DNA of 64,000 bases from Rhodothermales bacterium (GCA_965207385.1 CBDBLZ010000021.1:641205-705204); one strand, 5' to 3'; positions 8,069 to 48,295 are shown, counted from the stretch's first letter. The notes: a model not told the origin generated them from the letters alone. A program made the numbers and translations.

Positions 8069-11000
8069 ATGACCGTCAGATGCGACGCCCCGGGGCATGC
8101 TGCCACCCCGGCTTTCGGGCAGGCAAATGGGAGGACCGGCTACGCCAAGGTGAGGTCGCTCCTATTTCAGACGTCAGCGGCTTCAATGCTGGCTTGTGCC
8201 CTTGTGGCATGCAGGCCGGCGCCGGACACCGGCCCCAGGAAGGTCGAAGTGTTGTTCCTTGGTCATGAGAGCACGCACCATGACGCGCAGACCTACGCGT
8301 CTGCCGTTGCTGCGTCCTTTGCTCGGGAGGGCATCAATATTTCGTATTCCAACGATCCGAGCGTACTGGAGCCGGCCACACTTGACCTGTATGATGTTCT
8401 GCTTCTGTATGCCAACCACGATTCCATTACCGCTTCACAGGAGAGGGCACTGCTGGACTTTGTGGCCTCCGGAAATGGATTTGTGCCGGTGCACAGCGCC
8501 TCGTACTGCTTCAGGAATTCGGATGCATTTGTGCGGCTTGTCGGTGCCCAGTTCCAGGAGCACGGCGTTGGCAGGTTTACGGCCCCGATCCTCCAGGCGG
8601 ACCACCCTGCCATGCAAGGGCTCAAGGAATTCGAAACGTGGGACGAAACCTACGTGCACACGAGGCATGCACCAGACCGAGCCGTGCTCATGGAGCGCGT
8701 GGACGGCCAACACCGCGAGCCCTGGACATGGACGCGCACGCACGGCAAGGGGCGGGTGTTCTATACCGCCTATGGCCATGACGAACGCACATGGAACCAT
8801 CCGGATTTCCTGAATCTCCTCAAGGCGGGTCTGCTGTGGGCCGCGGGGGATAGAGTGCGTGCGCGATGGGAGGCGCTCGATCTTCCGCCGCTGGTTTACT
8901 CACCGCACGACAGCATTCCCAACTACGAGGAGCGGGATCCTCCTCCCAGGTTTCAGCATCCCCTGTCGCCGGAGGCTTCCCGGGCTCACATGCAGATTCC
9001 GCCCGGATTTGAATTGACACTATTTGCCTCCGAGCCGCTCATCAGAAACCCTATTGCGATGGCCTGGGACGAGCGGGGAAGGCTTTTCGTGATAGAAACT
9101 CGGGACTATCCTCACAACCTGCGCTCGGAAGGGGGCGATGCGATAAAGATCCTGCACGACACGGATGCGGATGGCAGGGCAGACTCCGTCACCGTGTTTG
9201 CTGACGGGCTCAGCATTGCCACAGGTCTCGCGTTCGCACACGATGGCCTCATAGTGTCCCAGGCGCCCGACATGCTCTTCCTGCAGGATACGGACGGAGA
9301 CGACAGGGCTGACAGGCGCGAGGTGTTGTTCTCGGGATTCGGGACAGGGGACACGCACGCCGGTCCGTCGAATCTCAAGGCTGGCTTTGATAACTGGACC
9401 TGGGGCACGGTGGGATACAGTGATTTCGAGGGAGTGGTGGGCGGTGACACCGTTCGAATGGTTCAGGGTGTATTTCGATTCAGGCCCGGCCAGTTGGAAC
9501 AGGTTTCCACGTATACGAACAATACTTGGGGACTTGGTTTCTCGGAGACGTTCGACGTTTTCGGATCCACCGCCAACAATGAGCACAGCGTGTTCGTCGC
9601 GATACCGGATCGATACTATGCCGGTGTCCCGGGACTGCTGGGCGATGGCAAGATCAAGATCGATGGCCACTATGCCATGCGGCCCAATACGCCCAACATT
9701 CGTCAGGTCGACGTATGGGGCGGATTTACCTCCGCTGCGGGGCACAACCTGTATACGGCGCGCGATTTCCCTGACGAATACTGGAATCGCATCGCCCTTG
9801 TCAACGAGCCAACAGGTCACCTTCTGCACCGGGCAATCATCGAGAGCGCAGGATCGGGCTACCGTGAGCGAGATGCCTGGAATCTCCTGGCAAGTGCCGA
9901 TGAATGGGTGTCGCCCGTACATGCAGAAGTGGGGCCGGACGGCGCCGTGTGGATTCTGGACTGGTACAACTTTATCGTGCAGCACAATCCCACGCCCGAG
10001 GGATTTCGCACGGGAAGGGGAGCTGCCCACGTCAATATTCTGCGGGATTACCAGCACGGACGCATTTACCGGCTCGCGTACAGGAATGCAAGGCGCCGAC
10101 GCATTCCAGAGCTGGACATTGAGCGGCCGTCTACCCTGCTAAGGGCACTTCAACATGACAACATGTTCTGGCGCATGACGGCCCAGAGGCTTCTGGTGGA
10201 GCGCGGCGGCCTTGATGTAGTGCCTGGTCTGCTGGAAATCGCGAGCGATGCGGGACTGGATGCAATAGGCCTGAATGGAGGCGCCGCGCACGCGCTTTGG
10301 ACCCTCCAGGGACTGGATGCCGTGCGTGGAGAAGCGCTGCGCATTGTGGAGTCAGCTCTTCGGCACGCGGCGCCAGGCGTCAGAAAGGCGGCGCTGGCCG
10401 TGCTTCCACGGACGGATTCCAGTCTCTCGGCCATTCGGCGCGCCGGCGTGCTGGAGGACAAGAATCTTAATGTTCGTCTGGCGGCGTTTCTGGCGGCTTC
10501 CGAAATGCCCGCCGACCGTGAGACGGGAGCCGTGCTCTACGGGCAGAGCACGCTGCCTGAAGTCAGGACGGATGTCTGGCTTCCGGAGGCGCTGTACATT
10601 GCGGCAAGCCGCCATTGGGAAGGGTTCGTGGACGCGTACGCGCAGGACCTGGGGGCGCTCGCATTCACACGGATGGCAGCTCGCCTTGCCTCCGGTTACA
10701 CGGAGACCCCGACAGACTGGTCAGCGCCCGATCTGGAAACATCGGAGTGGGGGACCATGGCCCTTCCGATGCCATGGGTAAGGACAAATGCACTGACGTC
10801 ATTCGATGGAGCCGTGTGGTTTCGCATTGAGGTCCACCTGCCGGATGCGCCCGCAGGTGCGACGCTCGGCCTGGGCGCGATATATGACAGCGACGTGACC
10901 TTTGTGAACGGCGAGCAGATCGGGGAAACCCTGAACGGCTACGATGCAGCGCGGGTCTACGGCATCCCGCCGGGTCTGTTGCAGGCCGGCCGCAACGTGG

Positions 11001-11641
11001 TTGCTGTCCGCGTGGACGATCCCCGCGGTCGTGGAGGGTTTTGGGGTAGTGCGTATGACCTGTTCCTGCGCACGGGCGGCAGAGCGCATTCGCTTGCCGC
11101 CGAGTGGCACTTCAAAGTCGAGGAGGAATATGTCGGCGGCAAGAAGAGCGAGCTGGCTGCGCATACGCCGATTGCGGAGCACTTTGTCCGGCACCACCTG
11201 GACCGGCTCGATATCGCAGCAGAACGTGTTGGTCCGTCTGCCAACAACGAAACGATACATGAACTGACTCTTTCGGTTATTCCGGGCGCACTGCAGTATG
11301 ACCGCACCTTGCTTGAGATTCCCGCCGGAAGCCTTGCAAGGCTGACGCTTACCAATCCAGGGGATATGCCCCACAACGCCGTGTTTACGGCCCCCGGCAC
11401 CGCGGAAGCTGTCGGACTGAGGTCAGAAAGGGAGGCGGCCGTGGGAGTTTTCGTTCCTGATACGTCTGCCGTGCTGTTTGCCACTGGCATGGCAGACCCG
11501 GGGTCCGAGATTTCGGTAACGTTTCGATCGCCGTCCGCGCCCGGTGACTATCCGTTTCTCTGCACGTATCCGGGCCACTGGAGAGTGATGCAGGGAGTAC
11601 TGCGCGTGACGCGGAATGCGACGGGCCGCGAGGCTTCGTAG
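8069..11641 (+). CDS. large exported multidomain protein: ThuA-like + beta-propeller (membrane-bound dehydrogenase-type) + HEAT-like repeats + jelly-roll + C-terminal cupredoxin
   Basis: 1190 aa. It has a lipobox-like N-terminus (SMLACALVAC). The ThuA-like region reads VLFLGHESTHH..LLLYANHD..FVPVHSASYCF. The middle region is of the propeller/dehydrogenase type (WDERGRLFVIETRDYP, WILDWYNFIVQHNP). The C-terminus reads GDMPHNAVF....GDYPFLCTYPGHWRVMQG, an azurin/plastocyanin-type H..C..H..M copper ligand pattern. Confidence 0.75.
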   Translation: MTVRCDAPGHAATPAFGQANGRTGYAKVRSLLFQTSAASMLACALVACRPAPDTGPRKVEVLFLGHESTHHDAQTYASAVAASFAREGINISYSNDPSVLEPATLDLYDVLLLYANHDSITASQERALLDFVASGNGFVPVHSASYCFRNSDAFVRLVGAQFQEHGVGRFTAPILQADHPAMQGLKEFETWDETYVHTRHAPDRAVLMERVDGQHREPWTWTRTHGKGRVFYTAYGHDERTWNHPDFLNLLKAGLLWAAGDRVRARWEALDLPPLVYSPHDSIPNYEERDPPPRFQHPLSPEASRAHMQIPPGFELTLFASEPLIRNPIAMAWDERGRLFVIETRDYPHNLRSEGGDAIKILHDTDADGRADSVTVFADGLSIATGLAFAHDGLIVSQAPDMLFLQDTDGDDRADRREVLFSGFGTGDTHAGPSNLKAGFDNWTWGTVGYSDFEGVVGGDTVRMVQGVFRFRPGQLEQVSTYTNNTWGLGFSETFDVFGSTANNEHSVFVAIPDRYYAGVPGLLGDGKIKIDGHYAMRPNTPNIRQVDVWGGFTSAAGHNLYTARDFPDEYWNRIALVNEPTGHLLHRAIIESAGSGYRERDAWNLLASADEWVSPVHAEVGPDGAVWILDWYNFIVQHNPTPEGFRTGRGAAHVNILRDYQHGRIYRLAYRNARRRRIPELDIERPSTLLRALQHDNMFWRMTAQRLLVERGGLDVVPGLLEIASDAGLDAIGLNGGAAHALWTLQGLDAVRGEALRIVESALRHAAPGVRKAALAVLPRTDSSLSAIRRAGVLEDKNLNVRLAAFLAASEMPADRETGAVLYGQSTLPEVRTDVWLPEALYIAASRHWEGFVDAYAQDLGALAFTRMAARLASGYTETPTDWSAPDLETSEWGTMALPMPWVRTNALTSFDGAVWFRIEVHLPDAPAGATLGLGAIYDSDVTFVNGEQIGETLNGYDAARVYGIPPGLLQAGRNVVAVRVDDPRGRGGFWGSAYDLFLRTGGRAHSLAAEWHFKVEEEYVGGKKSELAAHTPIAEHFVRHHLDRLDIAAERVGPSANNETIHELTLSVIPGALQYDRTLLEIPAGSLARLTLTNPGDMPHNAVFTAPGTAEAVGLRSEREAAVGVFVPDTSAVLFATGMADPGSEISVTFRSPSAPGDYPFLCTYPGHWRVMQGVLRVTRNATGREAS

Positions 11642-12010
11642 CTCCGGGCGCTTGCTTTGATAGCGGCGTTTTGTGTCTATCCTCGGACATGACGTAGCCT
11701 CGATTATCGAGCCACGGCCACCATCAGGGCAATAGCTGTCACTATCAAGCCTACGCGTCAATTCCATCCGCTGCGTCGCCGATTCTTGGTCCGGGAACTT
11801 ATCCAGTAATCCCAATCAATTCACTGCCTGCACTCTCTGCCACATGAAATATGCTATCTGCGAGGGAAATATCAATAGACTTGCCACATAATCTCTACAG
11901 TGTTGTCACAAATCCTGTTCCCGTCGTCTTCAGTTGTACATCTCCAACGACTTCCCTATATTGAAAGCACAACATTTCTTCACCGATATTCGTTAACCAG
12001 CTAGATACAA

Positions 12011-12298
12011 GTGACCATGAAGATCATAGCTATGAAGACCGTAGACAGGACGGTATTCTCGGCATTACTATTCGCAGGGCTGGCCATCCTGGCATTTGCG
12101 GGTGGTGGGCTTTTTAATGCAGCGTTTCTCTCACCCGCTGATACTCAAGCGGGTGACGATACTTGTGACCACGACGTTTGCAAAGAGATCACATACGCAG
12201 ATGACTCAGTGGAGTGGGTCTGCGGAGACGATGGGACATTTACTTGGGAAGATTGCAATGCCCAACACAATAAGGAATGCGACATGGATGACTGTTGA
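12011..12298 (+). CDS. exported acidic Cys-rich mini-protein (cassette 1)
   Basis: 95 aa with GTG at 12011 and ATG at 12017. The leader is hydrophobic (FSALLFAGLAILAFAGGG). The tail is GDDTCDHDVCKEITYADDSVEWVCGDDGTFTWEDCNAQHNKECDMDDC, with 6 Cys and 16 D/E among the last 48 residues, and it ends on Cys. It lies in an AT-rich island preceded by about 370 bp of non-coding sequence. Confidence 0.6.
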   Translation: MTMKIIAMKTVDRTVFSALLFAGLAILAFAGGGLFNAAFLSPADTQAGDDTCDHDVCKEITYADDSVEWVCGDDGTFTWEDCNAQHNKECDMDDC

Positions 12299-13052
12299 CA
12301 CTGGACCGGGATTCCTAGTATGCGGTTTAAGATGGCGCTCTGGCTCTGAAGATGAACTTCGTCTTGACCGCGAGAAGAAGGTCGCGCTCGGTGGATTCCA
12401 GGTCGACGATTAACGTTGAGGCTCCCCGATGGGGCATAGCAGTAGCCATTCGCTGCCCGACTCCGCCGGAGCTCAATGGATTGGATGTGTCCATGGTGAG
12501 AAGGGGTTTGATGATGAACAAATTAGGCTGGACTACTTGACCAGTTCCGCTGCTAGAACCCCGCTGCGGCTACACTTCTAATGTACAACCGTATCTCACT
12601 TTTTGTTGGCACGGAGGGCAGGACATACCAGCCCGCCATTGTAGTCAATGGACCAGAGGTCACGGTTCAAGCGCGAATTCGTAATTCGATTGTGCAAGAG
12701 ATTTCCCGTCTGTGCTTCGATGTGTCGTCGCGGGCGGTGCTACTAAAACGAAATGGTCGAGCGCCGGTAGTGCAGCCTCACCCGCGAAAAGGTCCGCTAA
12801 TGCGAGTACGTGCCGTTGCCCGAGGCCCCGAAGTGCCTTCACTCGCCCCCATCGACGCCACAAATAGCTCAAGAATTGCGGTCCGGCCACCGTTTATTGT
12901 GAGCTGGACGGAATCCCTTTGGCCAAATCCGAAGTCACCACTACAACGCATTACTCACAGGGTTCGCCATGTCCCACGCTTACCGAGGTAAGACTGCCCC
13001 GAATCCGCCGGCGCACTGTCCCGCCGAATGGGTACATCCTAATAGTTAAACC

Positions 13053-14198
13053 ATGATTTCCTGGAAGCTACGCATCATAATTCTTTGTGCCGTTATCGGG
13101 CTACTTTTGGTTGTTGCCCTTCTCGCGAATATCGTAGGTGATAGAATCGGCGGGGCGACTAATCCTGTCGGAGAAGTACGCCATCCTACTCCCGAGAACA
13201 TACCCTCGGTAACCGATGCACGCCGCGTAGCAGGCCATGGGCCCGCTACCGGCGATGGTAGTCATGCCTTCTTGGATTCAACGTCCTACAGCGAGCTAAC
13301 TATTGGTGTAGCAGAGGGATCGGCGCACGAAATGTTCGGCCTGATTGAAGATGTCGTCATCGACTATAGTGGCAACATTTTTATTTTGGATTCTCAGTAT
13401 AACCAGGTGCGAGTATTCGACTATGATGGCTCCTTCATTAGCACGATCGGTGCTCCTGGACAAGGACCGGGTGAATTCCTTTCTGCACGAAATGTGTTGA
13501 TTTCCTCTCTAGGGAACATTGTTGCGGTTATGAGTGGCCCGAAGATCGAGATGTTTGAACGACAGGGTCCGACTTCTTTCGCATACCGCTCTACTTTCTC
13601 CAGAGAAGGTTACCTTGGGCCCGGCGGATGCGCAATGAACAACCATTTGTATCTATTGGCCGTAGTTCCCAATAGGGACGGTATGATACATAAACATACG
13701 CTCGACGGCGAAATAGCCCGTTCTTTTGGAGCGCTATACAATTCTGACAACGAACAAGTTGTCAGACATATGTCGACGAAAGCTCGACTAGCGTGTAGTG
13801 AGAAGTATAGTATTGTAAGCTTCCTTATGGACTTTTCGCCGGTTCTTACCGGCTATCGCGAAGACGGTACGGTGGCTTGGCATGTGTCATTCGAGGGTTT
13901 TCTGGCATCGGCCGTTTGGGAAAGAAGAACTCCGGAAGGCCGGAATCGTATCTCGTATAGCGCAAATGAGGTCGGGGAAGCGTTCTACACGCATATGTTT
14001 TTTCATCATGATCACTTTTACGTCGGTTACAGAGTACGAGGTGATGGCACAGGACAGCACTTCAGAATTCACGCAGAAAGTGGGTATACGGAGTACTTGG
14101 GAACTCTCGACGCAGCAGTCTATGGTATCGACGGAGAGCGTGTAATAGTGGCCAGGAATTTTCCGTTCCCGAGAGTCAAGGTGTTCACTAGGCGATAG
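13053..14198 (+). CDS. 6-bladed beta-propeller protein (NHL/DUF5128-like), N-terminal signal anchor (cassette 1)
   Basis: 381 aa. TM segment LRIIILCAVIGLLLVVALLANIV. Blade motif DYSGNIFILDSQYNQVRVFDYDGSFISTIGAPGQGPGEF. It is a paralogue of 21150..22166. Confidence 0.75.
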   Translation: MISWKLRIIILCAVIGLLLVVALLANIVGDRIGGATNPVGEVRHPTPENIPSVTDARRVAGHGPATGDGSHAFLDSTSYSELTIGVAEGSAHEMFGLIEDVVIDYSGNIFILDSQYNQVRVFDYDGSFISTIGAPGQGPGEFLSARNVLISSLGNIVAVMSGPKIEMFERQGPTSFAYRSTFSREGYLGPGGCAMNNHLYLLAVVPNRDGMIHKHTLDGEIARSFGALYNSDNEQVVRHMSTKARLACSEKYSIVSFLMDFSPVLTGYREDGTVAWHVSFEGFLASAVWERRTPEGRNRISYSANEVGEAFYTHMFFHHDHFYVGYRVRGDGTGQHFRIHAESGYTEYLGTLDAAVYGIDGERVIVARNFPFPRVKVFTRR

Positions 14199-14206
14199 AC
14201 GCTCAC

Positions 14207-14812
14207 GTGAAGGTACTTGAAGTCAAGTGGATACGGTGGGGAGGCGCTGGTATAGTGGCGTCGTGTTTTTGGCTCGGGGCCGTGGTGGGAATTCCGATTT
14301 CGTCAGTGGAAATTCATTGGAGAGTAAAAGACTCTCAGCCTGGGGAAAGGTATGTGCCCTCACATTCTGTGGTTAGCGGGCGGGAAATGGTGATGGTTTA
14401 TCTTGGCGCGTATTCTTGTGCGTTCGCAAATGACGAGGCGTTGCCTCGGATTGTTGAGAGGATTAAGCTTGGTTTGCAGGACAAGGCTGTGAACGAGGGT
14501 ATGTCATTTTCAGCTATTGGAGTGGCGGTGGATTGGCGCGTTGGTGAGGGAGTTGAACACTTGGAAAAATTTGGACAGTTTGATGAGATCTTGGCTGGGC
14601 GCAAATGGCACGGAGTCGGCTCTCTGCAGTTCTTCAAGGAACGGTTAGCGGGAGTAGCGGCGACGCCGCAAGTCTTGGTGTTTAAGCGGGATATAGAGGC
14701 GGAAGAGGGTGCATTTCGAGTGTCGAACGAACGCGTGCTTGTCCGAAAGATGGGCGTGTTAGGCATAGGCAATTGGCTTGAACGCGGGTTGCCTTTGCCT
14801 GAGAACTTATAG
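14207..14812 (+). CDS. membrane-anchored thioredoxin-fold protein, monothiol CAFA variant (cassette 1)
   Basis: 201 aa with a GTG start 8 nt after the propeller stop. TM segment AGIVASCFWLGAVVGIPI. VMVYLGAYSCAFANDEALPRIVERI aligns with the CSFC site of 22169..22675. A later TPQVLVF looks like a cis-Pro loop. Confidence 0.55.
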   Translation: MKVLEVKWIRWGGAGIVASCFWLGAVVGIPISSVEIHWRVKDSQPGERYVPSHSVVSGREMVMVYLGAYSCAFANDEALPRIVERIKLGLQDKAVNEGMSFSAIGVAVDWRVGEGVEHLEKFGQFDEILAGRKWHGVGSLQFFKERLAGVAATPQVLVFKRDIEAEEGAFRVSNERVLVRKMGVLGIGNWLERGLPLPENL

Positions 14813-15091
14813 AGCAGGTTGAGCTGGAATGGCGGTGGCACTGCGCGCATAGCGCCAGCAAATCAAACGAGCAGAAACAGCCCAAATCTAGAATATGTGT
14901 AGGTAGACTTGGACATCTATCTCCGCATGTACGCGCTTGAAGGCATGGACTTTTGCGGCATGCCAATATTCAGCGAGGGGTTTAAGGGATCTCTTGGGGC
15001 GCTCAGACCCGACCGCCTCCATCCGTGACTTTGAACGGATCGCCGGCGGCAGGCAGACAGTTCGCGCGGCTAAGCCGCCCATAAAAGCGTG

Positions 15092-16531
15092 CTACGCGAT
15101 AATTCCCTTCACCACAAAAGCCTCCTCTACCCCTGTTAGCTTTTGGTCCAGTCCCCGAAACTTGACAGTGAGTCGCTCATGGTCGATGCCTAGCTGATGC
15201 AGAATTGTGGCGTTCAGGTCGCGGATGTGTACGGGATCCTCGAGTATGTTATAGGCGAAGTCATCGGTTAGTCCATACTCGATCCCCGGCTTTATGCCGC
15301 CGCCCGCAAGCCACAGCGTGAAGCAGCGACCATGGTGATCGCGGCCGGCGCTTGGATGTCCCAGCTCACCCTGGCTGTATATGGTACGACCGAATTCCCC
15401 TCCCCAGATGACGAGCGTCTCCTCCAGCAAACCGCGTCGCTTCAAGTCCTTGACCAGGGCAGCCGATGCCTGATCCACATCCAGGCACTGCGAAGGCAAT
15501 TGCTGCCTGAGCGCGATGTGCTGGTCCCATCCCCGATGGAAGAGTTGCACGAATCGCACGCCCCTTTCCGTCATTCGCCGCGCGAGCAGGCAATTTGCGC
15601 TGTAACTGCCAGGCTTGCGGGAGTCCGGGCCATAGAGTTCGAATACTTCCTCCGGCTCATCAGACAAATCCATCAGATCCGGAACCGCAGTCTGCATGCG
15701 GAAGGCCATTTCATAGGCTTCGACCCGGGCAAGGGTCTCGGGATCACCCACCGCTTCGGCTTCGCGGCGGTTGAGAACGGCCAGATCGTCCAGCATGCGC
15801 CTTCTTTGCGCACGAGTCACGCCCGGTGGATCGGAGAGGTAAAGCACCGGGTTCACCCCCGGTCGCAGTAGCACGCCCTGATGGCTACTGGGCAGGTACC
15901 CGCTGCCCCAAAGCCGCGCATAAATGGGCTGTCCGGGATTTTTCCCGGATCCTTGGGACAGCAGAACCATGTAGGCGGGGAGGTTCTCGTTTTCGCTGCC
16001 AAGTCCATAGCTCAGCCAGGCACCTAGGCTGGCATGTCCGATTTGCTGTGATCCGGTGTTAATGAACGTGATGGCAGGATCATGATTGATGGCCTCCGTA
16101 TGCATCGACTTGATGATGCAAATGTCATTTGCAATAGACTGAATATGTGGCAGCAGGTCGCTTATCCATGTGCCGTGGTGGCCGCAGCGGCGCATGGGCC
16201 ACATGGGAGATACTACCGGGAAGGAATTCTGCCGTGAGGTCATGCCGGTAAGCCGTTGGCCACCGCGTATGGAGTCCGGCAACTCAGTGGAATGCAAATC
16301 TGTCTGGGCGGGCTTGTAGTCGAAGAGGTCGACGTGCGAAGGACCACCTGACTGGAAGAGGTAGATTACCCGCTTTGCTTTTGGCAGAAAGTGAAGCGGG
16401 CTGCGCCCGCCGGTCCCCGTCAGATCCGGGAACAACAGGCTGGCCAGGCCGAGCCGCCCGATTCCCCTTGCTGTCTTGCCAAGGAAAGTACGGCGTGTGA
16501 TAGCACGTTCGAAATCGAGGACCGGATGCAT
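15092..16531 (-). CDS. DUF1501 family protein (sulfatase-like fold), Tat signal
   Basis: 479 aa. N-terminus [25 protein letters not shown] is Tat-like. Its size and sequence are typical of the DUF1501 partner of DUF1553 proteins. It starts 1-2 nt after the upstream gene's stop. Confidence 0.75.
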
Positions 16532-20583: not shown

Positions 20584-20862
20584 ATGACCATGCATGCCCA
20601 TAGCCGTTCAATCAGTCGGACCTTTCTCGCTCTAGCGTCGGCCGCTACTTTCATTGTGCTGGCCCTTTCATTTCCCGACGGCCAAGTAGCGCAAGCGAGA
20701 GACCCAGTGTGCAATGGAACTTGCGGCGCGCATTGCGATCTAGGCCCGGATTACTACTGCCACACGCTCTATTGTTGCGATAGGAGCCAACTTCCGTGCT
20801 CCGAAGGAGATGTGGAACCCTTCACCTGCTATGGCGACACCGACATTATGGTCACGCCCTAA
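20584..20862 (+). CDS. exported Cys-rich mini-protein (cassette 2, copy A)
   Basis: 92 aa. Leader RTFLALASAATFIVLALSF..VAQA. Tail RDPVCNGTCGAHCDLGPDYYCHTLYCCDRSQLPCSEGDVEPFTCYGDTDIMVTP has 8 Cys. Like 12011, it begins M-T-M (ATGACCATG versus GTGACCATG). Confidence 0.6.
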   Translation: MTMHAHSRSISRTFLALASAATFIVLALSFPDGQVAQARDPVCNGTCGAHCDLGPDYYCHTLYCCDRSQLPCSEGDVEPFTCYGDTDIMVTP

Positions 20863-20883
20863 CACTAAACAAACGGTGCCTTC

Positions 20884-21153
20884 ATGATCAAGAAAAGGAT
20901 TTCTCGCTTACTCGTGTCGGTCCTCCTGACAGGGCTATTCTTAAGTCTAACGTTGGCTTCCTCTACCGCAGGCAAAGTCCCAGTCCCTGACTGCGGAGCT
21001 GATGCGATGCGCCGTTGTATCGCAGCAGGATGCGGGGGCGATGAGGTGGTGCTATGCGGTTCCACGACGTGTCTGGAATGTGTCGATTTTGCGGGTCTTT
21101 TTAATTTGGGTTGCTGGCTCAAGGACTTCTACTGTTACGGGGACTATCCATGA
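20884..21153 (+). CDS. exported Cys-rich mini-protein (cassette 2, copy B)
   Basis: 89 aa. Signal peptide MIKKRISRLLVSVLLTGLFLSLTLASS. Tail VPVPDCGADAMRRCIAAGCGGDEVVLCGSTTCLECVDFAGLFNLGCWLKDFYCYGDYP has 8 Cys. Its stop overlaps the next gene's ATG (ATGA at 21150-21153). Confidence 0.65.
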   Translation: MIKKRISRLLVSVLLTGLFLSLTLASSTAGKVPVPDCGADAMRRCIAAGCGGDEVVLCGSTTCLECVDFAGLFNLGCWLKDFYCYGDYP

Positions 21154-22166
21154 TCCGAACTCTGTCCTTCTTCTTGTGCCTGTCTTTGGTGTCGTGCCGC
21201 GCCACGCCAGCGGGACAAGATGGTACACGGCTCTTTGCCAAATTGTTGCTGTCGCCGGTCACGGAACAAGAAGCACAAGAACGGGAGTGGCGCGATGTTT
21301 CTCTCCGCCAGGTATTCAGCTTGCCAAGGTCACCGGATGTGTTGCTGTTTAACCCGGGAGAGATTACAGTTGATGCCGCAGGAAATATTTTCGTGACAGA
21401 TCACGCTGTGTTCAAGGTCTTGGCTTTTGATCAGGACGGCCACTATATCAGATCGTATGGAGAGGGAGAAGGAGAAGGGCCTGGTGAGTTGAGATCCGTA
21501 ATGAATACTGGATTAATCGGCGACACCACGCTTTTTGCCGTAGACTACGCTTCTAGGAAGATCTCATACTTCTCCAAAGATTCAGGAGCCTTTATTGAAT
21601 CTCGTACGATCACCGGAGTGCCCATTAGGCACACTGTTAGTACCGAAGGTGTCGCGTATACGCTGGTCGGTCGTACCGACTCGCTATTCCGATCCGAGAG
21701 TGGATCAGATGTGATCCAGTTCGGGGAATTGGTTGAGAATCAAATCTCACATGGCTTTAACCTGGCCTTAGGGTATATCGATACATACCGGGACAAGATG
21801 TTGCTCAGCCTAACCTACTTCCCAGTAATTGCGCAATACGAATCAGATGGGTCCCTCGTGTATGCGCGCACAACTCCGGACTATTTCGCGCAGTTTGACG
21901 AGCCGGAATGGGTGCGCACCGACTTTGCGGGAGCCATCGGTTTTCGTATTCAGGGCCAGGCGATTAACACTAGAAGCAGCGTGTACAACGATCAGCTTTT
22001 TGTGCATTCACGGAAAGCAGGTGCTATTGACGTGTTCGATGCCGAGACGGGTGACTACGGTTACTCCTTCCGGCTTCCACGAGATAGGAGTGCAGCGTAT
22101 GTTATGAACAATCGTCTGTATCAAGCGGAAGATACAACCGTAGTTGTATACTCATTTAGCTTGTAA
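21150..22166 (+). CDS. 6-bladed beta-propeller lipoprotein (NHL/DUF5128-like) (cassette 2)
   Basis: ORF 21111..22166. The likely start is MIRTLSFFLCLSLVSC (lipobox) at 21150. Blade motif DAAGNIFVTDHAVFKVLAFDQDGHYIRSYGEGEGEGPGEL. It is a paralogue of 13053..14198. Confidence 0.75.
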   Translation: MIRTLSFFLCLSLVSCRATPAGQDGTRLFAKLLLSPVTEQEAQEREWRDVSLRQVFSLPRSPDVLLFNPGEITVDAAGNIFVTDHAVFKVLAFDQDGHYIRSYGEGEGEGPGELRSVMNTGLIGDTTLFAVDYASRKISYFSKDSGAFIESRTITGVPIRHTVSTEGVAYTLVGRTDSLFRSESGSDVIQFGELVENQISHGFNLALGYIDTYRDKMLLSLTYFPVIAQYESDGSLVYARTTPDYFAQFDEPEWVRTDFAGAIGFRIQGQAINTRSSVYNDQLFVHSRKAGAIDVFDAETGDYGYSFRLPRDRSAAYVMNNRLYQAEDTTVVVYSFSL

Positions 22167-22168
22167 CG

Positions 22169-22675
22169 GTGAGTAGACCCGCATCTCGGACGCCGTTGAT
22201 AATGGAATGGGTCAGTTACGCTGTCCTATTGGTTACCATTGTCATGTTCGCTTGGACGGTTTTCGGACCGCCAGAACCCACACCGTATGTCGACGTTGGC
22301 GATAGCATTCAGGCCGTGAAAGGTATGGAAGGGGAGTGGCCGGGCGAAAGCCTGTTGTTGGTTTTGTCCCCGACGTGTTCTTTCTGCACGGGAAGCCTGC
22401 CGTTCTATAAGCAGTTGGTGGATCAGAGAGAGAGGGAGGTGAACATAATTGTTGCTATAGATACCAGTGCGTCTGCAACTTTGCAGCGGCGTCTACTCGG
22501 GCAAGCAGGGGTAGCTCCGGATACGACGATCGTAATTCCTACGGTAGACGATAGGGTTGTGTATGTCCCAACAATTATTCACGTAGATCAAGGAGCGATG
22601 GCAAAGAGAGTGTGGGTTGGCCAGTTGAATGGCGAACAGGAAGAAGAAGTACTGTCGATTGTACGAATGAAGTAG
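22169..22675 (+). CDS. membrane-anchored thioredoxin-like protein with CxxC (CSFC) (cassette 2)
   Basis: 168 aa with a GTG start 2 nt after the propeller stop. TM segment WVSYAVLLVTIVMFAWTVF. LLLVLSPTCSFCTGSLPFYKQL is a TlpA/ResA-type active-site context, and VPTIIHVD looks like a cis-Pro loop. Confidence 0.65.
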   Translation: MSRPASRTPLIMEWVSYAVLLVTIVMFAWTVFGPPEPTPYVDVGDSIQAVKGMEGEWPGESLLLVLSPTCSFCTGSLPFYKQLVDQREREVNIIVAIDTSASATLQRRLLGQAGVAPDTTIVIPTVDDRVVYVPTIIHVDQGAMAKRVWVGQLNGEQEEEVLSIVRMK

Positions 22676-26482: not shown

Positions 26483-26760
26483 GAGAATAGGTCAGGCTTT
26501 TCGGCTGGCATGGAAAATACGATCAGACCGCCTTAGGCGCAGCTACGGGAGAATTGGGTAACAGCAGCTGAAAGGGCCAAGTGTGTCGGGTACTTGGAGA
26601 AACGTGGCCAAAATAAAGAAGGGCAAGCTCCCCGCATCGCGTCGCTGCAACCTCCTACCGCTGCTGCCTTCCGGCCCTGACGGGGTTCAGAGGGAGCTGA
26701 CCGCACGGGACTTACCCTTCTTTTCACATCAACAGGGACCACTTGGGGCAGTTCCCGGAG

Positions 26761-48095: not shown

Positions 48096-48180
48096 CGGAG
48101 GGGGAGGGATTCGAACCCCCGGTACCTTTCGGCACGCTGGTTTTCAAGACCAGTGCATTCGACCGCTCTGCCACCCCTCC
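48096..48180 (-). tRNA. tRNA-Ser (anticodon UGA)
   Basis: Hand-folded reverse complement GGAGGGGTGGCAGAGCGGTCGAATGC..CTGGT-CTTGAAA-ACCAG..long variable arm..GGGGGTTCGAATCCCTC-CCCCTCC-G. The acceptor stem is a perfect 7 bp. The T-loop is TTCGAAT. CCA is not encoded. Confidence 0.85.
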
Positions 48181-48207
48181 GACAGTGGCGTGCGATTCCT
48201 GCGTCGG

Positions 48208-48295
48208 CGGAGAGGGTGGGATTCGAACCCACGATGAGCTTTTGACCCATACTCCCTTAGCAGGGGAGCGCCTTCAGCCGCTCGGCCACCTCTCC
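48208..48295 (-). tRNA. tRNA-Ser (anticodon GCU)
   Basis: Reverse complement GGAGAGGTGGCCGAGCGGCTGAAGGCG-CTCCC-CTGCTAA-GGGAG..variable arm..GTGGGTTCGAATCCCAC-CCTCTCC-G. It has a 7-bp acceptor stem and a class II long variable arm. Confidence 0.85.

Follow-up and report, generated by a model that had tools for sequence, protein, structure and literature searches.

A 64,000-nt stretch of DNA from a Rhodothermales bacterium (GCA_965207385.1 CBDBLZ010000021.1:641205-705204; hereafter, the window) contains, at positions 12011–14812, three genes that encode a small six-cysteine peptide with an export leader, a membrane-tethered β-propeller, and a membrane-tethered thioredoxin-like (Trx-like) protein with a single-cysteine motif. 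An earlier note on this DNA had grouped the three genes as a cassette, and our comparisons bear this out: they are one copy of a recurring cassette, the parts of which occur together in unrelated loci and in varied order. The observed basis for interpreting the cassette consists of the leader, the Cys frame of the peptide, the single-Cys motif at the thioredoxin active-site position, the membrane-tethered NHL propeller, and the linkage of the genes. We give a probability of about 50% to the reading that the peptide is exported by the Sec pathway and its disulfides are re-paired by the Trx-like protein, which is of the C-x-x-S type, with the propeller as a binding partner. The features of the cassette are as follows.

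12011–12298, + strand: peptide open reading frame (ORF), 95 amino acids (aa) from GTG 12011
12017–12151, + strand: export leader, 45 codons from ATG 12017, with a basic N-region, a long hydrophobic core, and a terminal T-Q-A (small-x-small)
12152–12298, + strand: predicted mature 48-residue peptide GDDTCDHDVCKEITYADDSVEWVCGDDGTFTWEDCNAQHNKECDMDDC with six Cys, plus the stop codon
13053–14198, + strand: membrane-tethered six-bladed NHL/DUF5128 β-propeller, 381 aa, TAG stop at 14196–14198
14207–14812, + strand: membrane-tethered single-Cys (C-A-F-A) thioredoxin-like protein, 201 aa from GTG, with one N-terminal helix

In the contexts of close homologues, the triad was found in L001, L006, L007, and L008 (the sequence of the last ends upstream). 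Over the stretch that begins at the ThuA gene and ends with the third gene, the metagenome contig L001 and the window are colinear and ~86% identical. The peptides of the first four cassettes (window, L001, L006, and L007) are unrelated overall, apart from the close homologue in L001, yet they have the same C-x4-C...C...C...C-x4-C frame. The Cys frame derived from these four was combined with a hydrophobic leader into a search pattern ending ≤25 residues before the stop, and all six frames of 1.03 Mb were searched with it. There were 11 matches, all in loci with a Trx-like gene and on the same strand, and seven of them lay within 13 new metagenome loci that had been retrieved via the Trx-like gene with a five-sequence alignment; no match occurred in 84 control loci (~0.86 Mb) or in the remaining window. 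When all 18 loci with a Trx-like family gene were considered, including these 13, the peptide was present in 12, counting a leader-truncated copy in L089 and an eight-Cys variant in L095, and in all six peptide-less loci the sequence ends close to the Trx-like gene. A propeller of the same clade adjoins the Trx-like gene in 12 of the 18. The gene orders were peptide–propeller–Trx, Trx–peptide–propeller, and peptide–Trx–X–propeller, and because the order varies, the association indicates functional linkage rather than the shared descent of one operon. No description of such a module was found in the literature on DUF5128, NVEALA, sets of propeller, Cys-rich peptide, and thioredoxin-like genes, or bacterial disulfide-rich peptides.

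The peptide gene agrees with its description in the earlier note, which had given it a hydrophobic leader and a 48-residue tail with six Cys, 16 acidic residues, and a Cys at the very end. The tail (GDDTC...MDDC; 12 Asp and 4 Glu, pI ~4.05) has the Cys spacing C-x4-C-x13-C-x10-C-x7-C-x4-C. ATG 12017, which gives 93 aa, is likely the start of the gene, GTG 12011 being the alternative; the L001 homologue starts at the equivalent ATG. The ORF is 87.8% identical to that of L001 without gaps, whereas the flanking DNA is 67–76% identical with gaps. The differences at codon positions 1, 2, and 3 number 14, 1, and 20, respectively, and all six Cys are retained. Against L001, dN/dS is 0.23 for the whole peptide (dS 0.36) and 0.15 for its mature part; the propeller (0.18) and the Trx-like gene (0.23) have similar values. 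Gap-free conservation against decayed flanks, the codon-position pattern, and the dN/dS values thus identify the peptide ORF as a genuine gene on which purifying selection acts. A word-indexed protein search with the peptide gave one match, the L001 homologue, and the exact window peptide is missing from the public protein collection.

Across the peptide family, the Cys spacing is C-x4-C-x5..21-C-x6..10-C-x3..10-C-x4-C, and the consensus comprises a leader, a small-x-small site, and the motifs C-E-x-D-x-C ... C-D-x-x-G ... C-x-T-x-x-C. The window peptide has all four family features (leader, small-x-small site, six Cys with C-x4-C ends, and a C-x-x-S-type Trx-like neighbor); in comparison with the family motif C-E-x3-C...C-x-T-x2-C, it has D instead of the usual E and the T is missing from the last motif. 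The earlier note had made its proposal depend on conservation of the Cys positions, and homologues and analogues do hold these positions, though the remaining sequence diverges beyond recognition. It had also suggested predicting the signal peptidase site. The leader ends in T-Q-A, and in nearly all family members (L007, L092, L093, L099, L100, and L101 among them) an equivalent small-x-small site precedes the first Cys by 0–5 residues; the leader accordingly looks cleavable rather than like an anchor, and two loci have signal peptidase I genes of their own.

The peptide could not be placed in a known family. The note had proposed searches against cysteine-knot and bacteriocin families, and these returned no bacteriocin or toxin family: neither Pfam nor NCBIfam gave a match for the window peptides or related peptides (nine were checked in Pfam), except for a sole Bacteriocin_II match in one distant peptide at E = 0.75, and a PDB sequence search with the tail gave no meaningful match. 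A CS-αβ defensin or knottin fold was rejected: the Cys spacing differs both from C...C-x3-C...C...C-x-C (CS-αβ) and from the adjacent or near-adjacent third and fourth Cys of knottins, and the PDB and Pfam toxin matches were not significant. A class II bacteriocin or bacteroidetocin-type locus was also rejected, given the lack of a family match, the Sec-like leader with its long hydrophobic core, and the lack of an ABC exporter in the window cassette. Several bacteriocin loci (pediocin PedC, sublancin BdbA/BdbB, and bacteroidetocins) do have a disulfide-bonded ribosomal peptide beside a dedicated Trx-fold protein that ensures proper disulfide pairing; unlike the cassette, however, they have double-glycine or other leaders, ABC exporters, C-x-x-C proteins, and no propeller. 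Bacteroidales propeller genes often lie beside small NVEALA-family peptide genes. A pairing of this kind (PF14055) was discarded because Pfam, searched at E ≤ 1 to 5, returned nothing for the window peptides or nine related ones.

The Trx-like gene begins at GTG 14207, eight nucleotides past the propeller stop, as the earlier note had stated, and the public protein collection holds its product as a 185-aa protein (P0027). A HMMER profile search, counted in cluster representatives at 50% identity, returned 1,873 representatives at E ≤ 1e−3 and 1,625 at E ≤ 1e−10, whereas a word-indexed protein search found five relatives only, far below this family size. The family (71 members and the profile) had no match in Pfam, NCBIfam, or PDB sequences; in the PDB, profiles of 5 and of 71 sequences both returned no meaningful match. 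Among these 71 members, the motif is (Y/F)-I-G-S-S-x-C-x-x-[S 63% / A 25% / C 8%]-N; C71, G131, and P154 are invariant, and T153-P154 is invariant or nearly so. C71 comes after a predicted strand at residues 58–66, T153-P154 (T-P-Q-V) stands directly ahead of a predicted strand at 155–166 and is a candidate for the cis-proline loop that comes before strand 3 in thioredoxin folds, and the secondary-structure order in the model (pLDDT 58) is β-α-β-α-β-β-α. When the family was aligned by hhalign with ResA, TrxA, and the Trx-like protein of a second cassette in the window (trx2, from cassette 2), strand 1 was aligned and C71 fell on the first Cys of C-x-x-C each time. The weak Foldseek list is dominated by thioredoxin folds (FetE, Sco1, TrxP, tryparedoxin, and ERp44). 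From the sequence and the model, a thioredoxin fold that lost its resolving Cys is likely but not proven. The Trx-like protein had no match in the plasmid collection, and a scan of the three cassette proteins with Pfam and NCBIfam gave the DUF5128 match of the propeller alone, with none from PADLOC. One member of the family, in L093 (5818–6966; = P0043), has a full C-A-A-C motif and a fused C-terminal DUF192 domain, and a MacB-type permease gene lies after it.

The call of a propeller in the earlier note was right. The protein matches Pfam PF17170 (DUF5128) with 42.8 bits against a cut-off of 22.9 (E = 5e−11), and an AlphaFold2 model built from 14 sequences (pLDDT 86, pTM 0.82) has at least 24 strands in six groups, so that we assign a six-bladed NHL/DUF5128 fold with confidence on the strength of the model. 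No lipobox is visible in the sequence and residues 4–32 are modeled as one N-terminal helix, in agreement with the note's description of the protein as signal-anchored and without a lipobox. The top Foldseek matches were NHL domains (Brat, TRIM2, and Thin), virginiamycin B lyase, BF0058 (4raa), and BVU_1028 (3s9j); the propeller profile matched solved NHL domains at values down to E = 1e−38 and the propellers of SOQ1 and NHLRC2 weakly (E = 0.002–0.7). The Bacteroidales DUF5128/DUF4221 propellers 4raa and 3s9j belong to the same Pfam family, have the same fold, and are exported and membrane- or lipid-tethered, whereas the clade of the cassette propeller has its own conserved Cys pair and HPTPENIP linker. 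The linker is conserved across the family and confidently packed in the model. The Cys pair (C193/C248) is placed by the model on the innermost strands of blades 3 and 4; it is present in 10 of 10 Trx-associated propellers and in their orphan paralogues and is missing from the propeller of cassette 2. In the public protein collection, the propeller appears as a 288-aa product (P0002) that lacks the conserved N-terminal third of the full 381-aa ORF.

The clusters mau and qhp contain the same types of parts, namely a propeller, a small exported Cys-rich polypeptide, and a Trx-like maturation factor (in mau, the heavy chain, the disulfide-rich light chain, and MauD), and the peptide might by this token be the cross-linked small subunit of a periplasmic propeller enzyme, as in methylamine dehydrogenase (MADH) or quinohemoprotein amine dehydrogenase (QHNDH), with the Trx-like protein as a maturation factor. 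We attach next to no weight to this explanation. The propeller has six NHL blades, not seven, and its invariant residues are those of the NHL repeat scaffold (GPGEF and Asp pairs), with no clear catalytic set in the alignment. Furthermore, the two Trp of the window peptide are not kept across the family, no Pfam or NCBIfam match to MauA, MauB, MauD, MauE, or QHNDH subunits was found, and no MauG, radical SAM, or flavoprotein maturase lies nearby. Membership in the MADH/QHNDH group was rejected on the lack of a subunit family match, the six blades, and the lack of MauD/MauE/MauG or QhpD/E/G maturases in the neighborhood.

In the mechanism that we propose, the peptide would be made with a Sec-type leader, which is probably cut by signal peptidase I after T-Q-A, and the 48-residue domain would be released outside the cytoplasm, where its six Cys may form three disulfides within the conserved frame. 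Protein disulfide isomerases (PDIs) of the C-x-x-S type and natural C-x-x-S proteins isomerize or hold disulfides and do not oxidize or reduce alone (PMC2132551, PMC12384036). The Trx-like protein, which keeps only the nucleophilic Cys, would by the same chemistry attack a disulfide of the client and let the client re-pair. Because a lone-Cys C-x-x-S type cannot oxidize or reduce a client alone, it is read as a dedicated disulfide isomerase or holdase, and it probably helps the peptide form correct disulfide bonds. The propeller would be a platform that binds or holds the peptide, in parallel with SOQ1 and NHLRC2, whose redox motif is situated where the Trx and NHL parts meet and whose NHL domain has been called a binding module (bioRxiv 10.1101/2021.03.16.435614). 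Antagonism, signaling, and service as a ligand are possible roles of the mature peptide.

Like the cassette, SOQ1 (plant thylakoid lumen) and NHLRC2 (animals) combine a Trx-like module with an NHL propeller, are membrane-anchored, and reside outside the cytoplasm or in an oxidizing compartment. In contrast to the cassette, in which separate genes lie 8 nt apart, their Trx-like and six-bladed NHL parts are fused in one chain. The Trx-like family of the cassette is unrelated to theirs by sequence and has C-x-x-S/A (C-A-F-A in the window) where they have CCINC, and the cassette is without a DsbD-like C-terminal domain of the SOQ1/NHLRC2 type. It does encode, beside the other two genes, a candidate client that is small and Cys-rich, of a kind absent from SOQ1 and NHLRC2. 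The C-x-x-S PDI family (yeast Eug1p; human ERp44, AGR2, AGR3, and TMX5; and PDI C-G-H-S mutants) shares with the Trx-like family a single nucleophilic active-site Cys. However, these PDIs are proteins of the eukaryotic endoplasmic reticulum with significant Trx-domain matches, whereas the Trx-like family is bacterial, with a single N-terminal helix as its membrane tether, and no sequence match to them could be detected. The E. coli enterotoxins STa and STII resemble the peptide in being small and Cys-rich with a Sec leader, and genes of the DsbA-like, MacB, and TolC types lie near some cassettes; STII passes through Sec, then DsbA, and then MacAB–TolC (PMC5985334). The enterotoxins nevertheless have no sequence relation to the peptide, their loci have no dedicated propeller or C-x-x-S protein, and the window cassette has none of these export genes.

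Several points weigh against the proposed folding of the peptide by its two partners. Only 18 loci were sampled, all located through Trx-like or propeller genes, and L095 has a Trx-like gene and a peptide with no propeller within the available sequence. In many places, a propeller of this clade has neither a peptide nor a Trx-like gene with it, as in L102, as singletons in L009 and L103, and, several at a time, in the islands rich in insertion sequences (ISs) of L003–L005, L104, and L105; because such lone propellers are frequent, the propeller has a role for which the other two genes are not strictly required. In a propeller-seeded genome scan, none of 80 loci had a Trx-like gene and Cys-rich leader peptides occurred in few of them, so that a propeller by itself does little to mark the module. 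Co-expression in the window is not assured because 754 bp and an IS relic separate the peptide gene from its partners. The thioredoxin fold itself is not established: the pLDDT of the model is low at 58, Foldseek gave no significant match (best E = 0.08), the hhalign E-values of 0.015–0.04 are weak, and there was no significant match in Pfam, NCBIfam, or PDB sequences. The label "monothiol Trx-like" given in the earlier note therefore holds in part, in that it fits the C-x-x-S/A motif, the invariant Thr-Pro, and the order of secondary-structure elements but has no significant sequence or structure match behind it. The disulfides, the cleavage of the leader, and the contact between peptide and propeller are all inferred.

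Accessory genes adjoin the cassette in other lineages. In L101, Pfam identified a DsbA-like gene (DSBA/Thioredoxin_4) between the Trx-like gene and the peptide and a TolC-type outer-membrane factor gene (OEP) after the propeller, and in L091 and L093, MacB-type permease genes (MacB_PCD and FtsX) lie immediately 3′ of the Trx-like gene. In L095, the Trx-like gene overlaps at its start with a gene for a sigma factor of the extracytoplasmic function (ECF) type, and L007 has a sigma-70 factor gene downstream of the cassette. Two unrelated metagenome loci, L092 (1611–2318) and L094 (577–1308), each have a signal peptidase I (Peptidase_S26) paralogue directly adjacent to the Trx-like and peptide genes. 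The module in these lineages has been extended by a dedicated signal peptidase I, a putative oxidase of the DsbA type, export parts of the MacB/TolC type, and ECF sigma factors, and such accessory genes point to a secreted, regulated product.

The sigma factor genes could alternatively mean that the cassette is an ECF-controlled envelope redox or stress module, in which the peptide is a periplasmic signal or a sacrificial thiol/disulfide buffer, instead of an end product for export, and the Trx-like protein and propeller sense or relay the redox state. One Trx-like family member weakly matches the SigX model, SOQ1 and NHLRC2 are regulators of other proteins, not folding factors, and the conserved Cys pair of the propeller could join a relay. 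We consider this a distinctly improbable explanation: a sigma factor gene occurs in 2 of the 18 loci and adjoins neither cassette of the window, and the dedicated signal peptidase and export parts suit a product better than a signal. The Trx-like protein of the window has almost no cytoplasmic part and thus cannot be an anti-sigma factor there.

The earlier note had regarded its acidic peptide as compatible with either a disulfide-knotted or a metal-binding product. In the latter case, the metal bound by the peptide would be Cu, Zn, Fe, or Ca, with the Trx-like protein acting as a metallochaperone of the Sco type and the propeller as a receptor; 16 of the 48 residues of the window peptide are Asp or Glu, Sco1 is among the weak Foldseek matches, and the upstream neighbor of the cassette encodes a cupredoxin domain. 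Strong acidity did not hold as a general trait, however. The L007 peptide is neutral, with six acidic and six basic residues, and that of L006 is mildly acidic, so that acidity is a feature of the lineage and not of the family. The peptide alignment contains no conserved His or Met, and the cupredoxin gene belongs to the conserved backbone, outside the low-GC islet that holds the cassette. Membership of the Trx-like protein among Sco-like metal chaperones was rejected, the C-x-x-x-C plus His of the Sco motif being absent and the family being single-Cys. The DsbA-like gene inside one cassette, together with the C-x-x-S partner, favors disulfides over metal, and we regard metal handling as very unlikely.

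Between the peptide gene and the other two genes of the window, and upstream of the peptide gene, the following features were recorded.

11946–11966, + strand: candidate promoter element AACGACTTCCCTATATTGAAA, ~50 nt 5′ of the peptide start, promoter role putative
12299–13052, no strand assigned: non-coding spacer, 754 bp between the peptide and propeller genes
12627–12827, + strand: decayed IS3-family transposase relic (integrase core) with four in-frame stops

The corresponding gap between the peptide and propeller genes is just 97 bp in L006. The spacer differences from L001 by codon position are 36/25/25, that is, without periodicity, and in L001, 655 bp stand in place of window positions 12464–12641. 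The spacer had no match in Rfam or in the plasmid collection. By tblastn with a transposase fragment from L009 as the query, the window relic was matched at 39% identity over 67 aa (E = 3e−6) and a relic in L001 (4582–4821) at 41% over 80 aa (E = 1e−11). Because an IS3 transposase relic with four stops lies inside the spacer, the 754-bp gap is, on this sequence evidence, the scar of an old IS insertion, and because the relic is common to both genomes, the insertion is older than the split between the window and L001. The earlier note had seen no convincing ORF in the gap, which is correct but incomplete in that the gap holds this relic. Upstream of the peptide gene, the 21-nt block at 11946–11966 has a single mismatch (T/C) against L001, whereas the surrounding intergenic DNA is ~70% identical. 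Scans for consensus promoters and terminators and repeat searches over 11600–15100 gave nothing over background, and no hairpin conserved with L001 was seen 3′ of the peptide stop codon.

The relic-bearing spacer would also be expected if the linkage had been lost in the window genome, with the peptide gene independent or decaying since the IS insertion and only the propeller and Trx-like pair still cooperating, and public annotation does not call the peptide gene. The probability of such a loss appears minimal. Neither the window nor L001 has a disrupted peptide ORF, the dN/dS of 0.23 at dS 0.36 and the conserved upstream block indicate constraint, and the insertion predates the split of the two genomes, the gene having been kept since. 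In the history that goes with the proposed peptide-folding cassette, an old IS insertion split the peptide gene from the propeller and Trx-like pair, yet all three genes have remained under purifying selection.

The cassette lies in a compositional islet. Its GC content is 0.515 compared with 0.60 for the remaining window, its GC3 is 0.49–0.55 compared with 0.68 in the neighboring gene, and the only other low-GC dip in the window, at ~20.3–22.7 kb, coincides with cassette 2 (GC 0.514). The flanking genes encode, according to Pfam, a ThuA-DUF7133-cupredoxin protein, DUF1501 and PSCyt/DUF1549/DUF1553 proteins, and a gamma-glutamyltranspeptidase. The site beside the ThuA-DUF7133-cupredoxin gene holds differing propeller sets, IS1595/IS21/IS3 fragments, AbiEi, and Mrr in L001–L005, L104, and L105, and from these sequences looks like a hypervariable insertion hot spot. 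In L006 (1–3800 and 6570–7450), the cassette is located amid ParA-like, Toprim, AAA_25, DDE transposase, and RHH antitoxin genes, a setting that is plasmid-like or like that of an integrative and conjugative element.

These surroundings would suit a toxin-immunity system, in which the peptide is a disulfide-stabilized, Sec-dependent antibacterial peptide, the propeller a sequestering immunity protein, and the Trx-like protein a folding accessory; propellers without peptides would then be orphan immunity genes gathered in islands. Peptide-binding lipoprotein or membrane immunity proteins exist for lantibiotics (NisI and SpaI), and Trx-like accessories exist for pediocin and sublancin. Consistent with this scenario, the peptides have lost all recognizable similarity whereas their partners can still be aligned, L092 and cassette 2 have tandem peptide paralogues, both cassettes of the window are low-GC islets, relatives lie amid IS elements and ParA/Toprim, AbiEi, Mrr, resolvase, and Fic/MazE genes, paralogous propeller arrays occur without peptides, and MacB and TolC parts adjoin some cassettes. 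On the other side, the only bacteriocin family match is that to Bacteriocin_II at E = 0.75, there is no double-glycine leader, C39 exporter, or PADLOC match, and the window cassette has no route for crossing the outer membrane. Over the short evolutionary distance to L001, the mature-peptide dN/dS of 0.15 speaks for purifying selection and against an arms race. We therefore judge toxin-immunity to be rather unlikely, with perhaps some chance in its favor.

Disulfide re-pairing of an exported client follows a known logic, that of a ribosomal disulfide peptide with a dedicated Trx-fold helper; new here are the C-x-x-S family, the peptide family, and the propeller partner. In its broadest form, our proposal is that the cassette represents a widespread three-component extracytoplasmic system, made up of a new family of Sec-exported six-Cys mini-proteins, a new C-x-x-S family of membrane Trx-like proteins (~1,900 clusters), and a Cys-pair NHL clade, and working as a split bacterial machine of the SOQ1/NHLRC2 type with its client next door; we put this forward tentatively, as a possibility with the odds against it. 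If true, it would offer a genetically tractable model for the action of Trx–NHL proteins on clients and a new class of ribosomal disulfide-knotted peptides in Rhodothermales-like, Gemmatimonadota-like, and related uncultured bacteria. Eukaryotic C-x-x-S proteins are quality-control holdases and isomerases, and to our knowledge no bacterial C-x-x-S protein has a dedicated co-encoded client. NHLRC2 is a human disease gene; the Trx-like/NHL pairing mirrors NHLRC2 and SOQ1 and may help to explain both, and a bacterial counterpart with a client of 48 residues would greatly ease such study. The Trx-like family of 1,873 clusters, which is without a Pfam, NCBIfam, or solved relative, gains a testable hypothesis with an invariant Cys, a likely client, and a likely partner. 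The peptides, a new structural family, are compact, presumably with three disulfides, and may serve as scaffolds or antimicrobials. For annotation, gene callers probably overlook short exported Cys-rich genes that lie beside members of the Trx-like family.

Cassette 2 (20584–22675) is an analogous, non-homologous set, with the following features.

20584–20862 and 20884–21153: tandem eight-Cys leader peptides with a common C-terminal F-x-C-Y-G-D motif
From internal Met 21150: DUF5128 propeller (MIRTLSFFLCLSLVSC, lipobox LVSC), probably a lipoprotein

The C-S-F-C motif of its Trx-like protein, trx2, is complete, and the protein matches Redoxin only weakly (E = 0.054). The family HMM of the cassette 1 protein did not match trx2, and hhalign aligned the active-site stretch alone; therefore, the two cassettes use different Trx-fold families.

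Some relatives of the cassette contain further genes. An eight-Cys peptide subfamily (L095, 6560–6826; L096, ~1670–1946) has the added tail C-G-S-G-x3-C-P-P-x-G-I-C-x-E; the L095 peptide begins C-x3-C, and its gene is followed by one for a protein with CarboxypepD_reg and TonB-plug domains in the propeller's stead. In L007 (1329–2408), the Trx-like gene and the propeller are separated by a gene for a Cys-rich protein of 359 aa that lacks a leader and matches nothing in Pfam. L006 has a second small leader peptide, with five Cys (10044–10271), upstream of a TolB-like lipoprotein propeller (10532–11605). In L102 (3269–10430), five same-clade propeller paralogues of ~376–388 aa, with a cleavable-looking signal and the HPTPENIP motif, stand in tandem; the spacers of 260–590 bp between them contain no Cys-rich peptide ORFs, and the locus has no Trx-like gene. 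The window also carries a Bacteroidales-type small signal recognition particle RNA (26617–26724, − strand; 90.8 bits), which together with the best genome matches hints at a Rhodothermales-like organism, and two adjacent tRNA genes (48096–48295, − strand).

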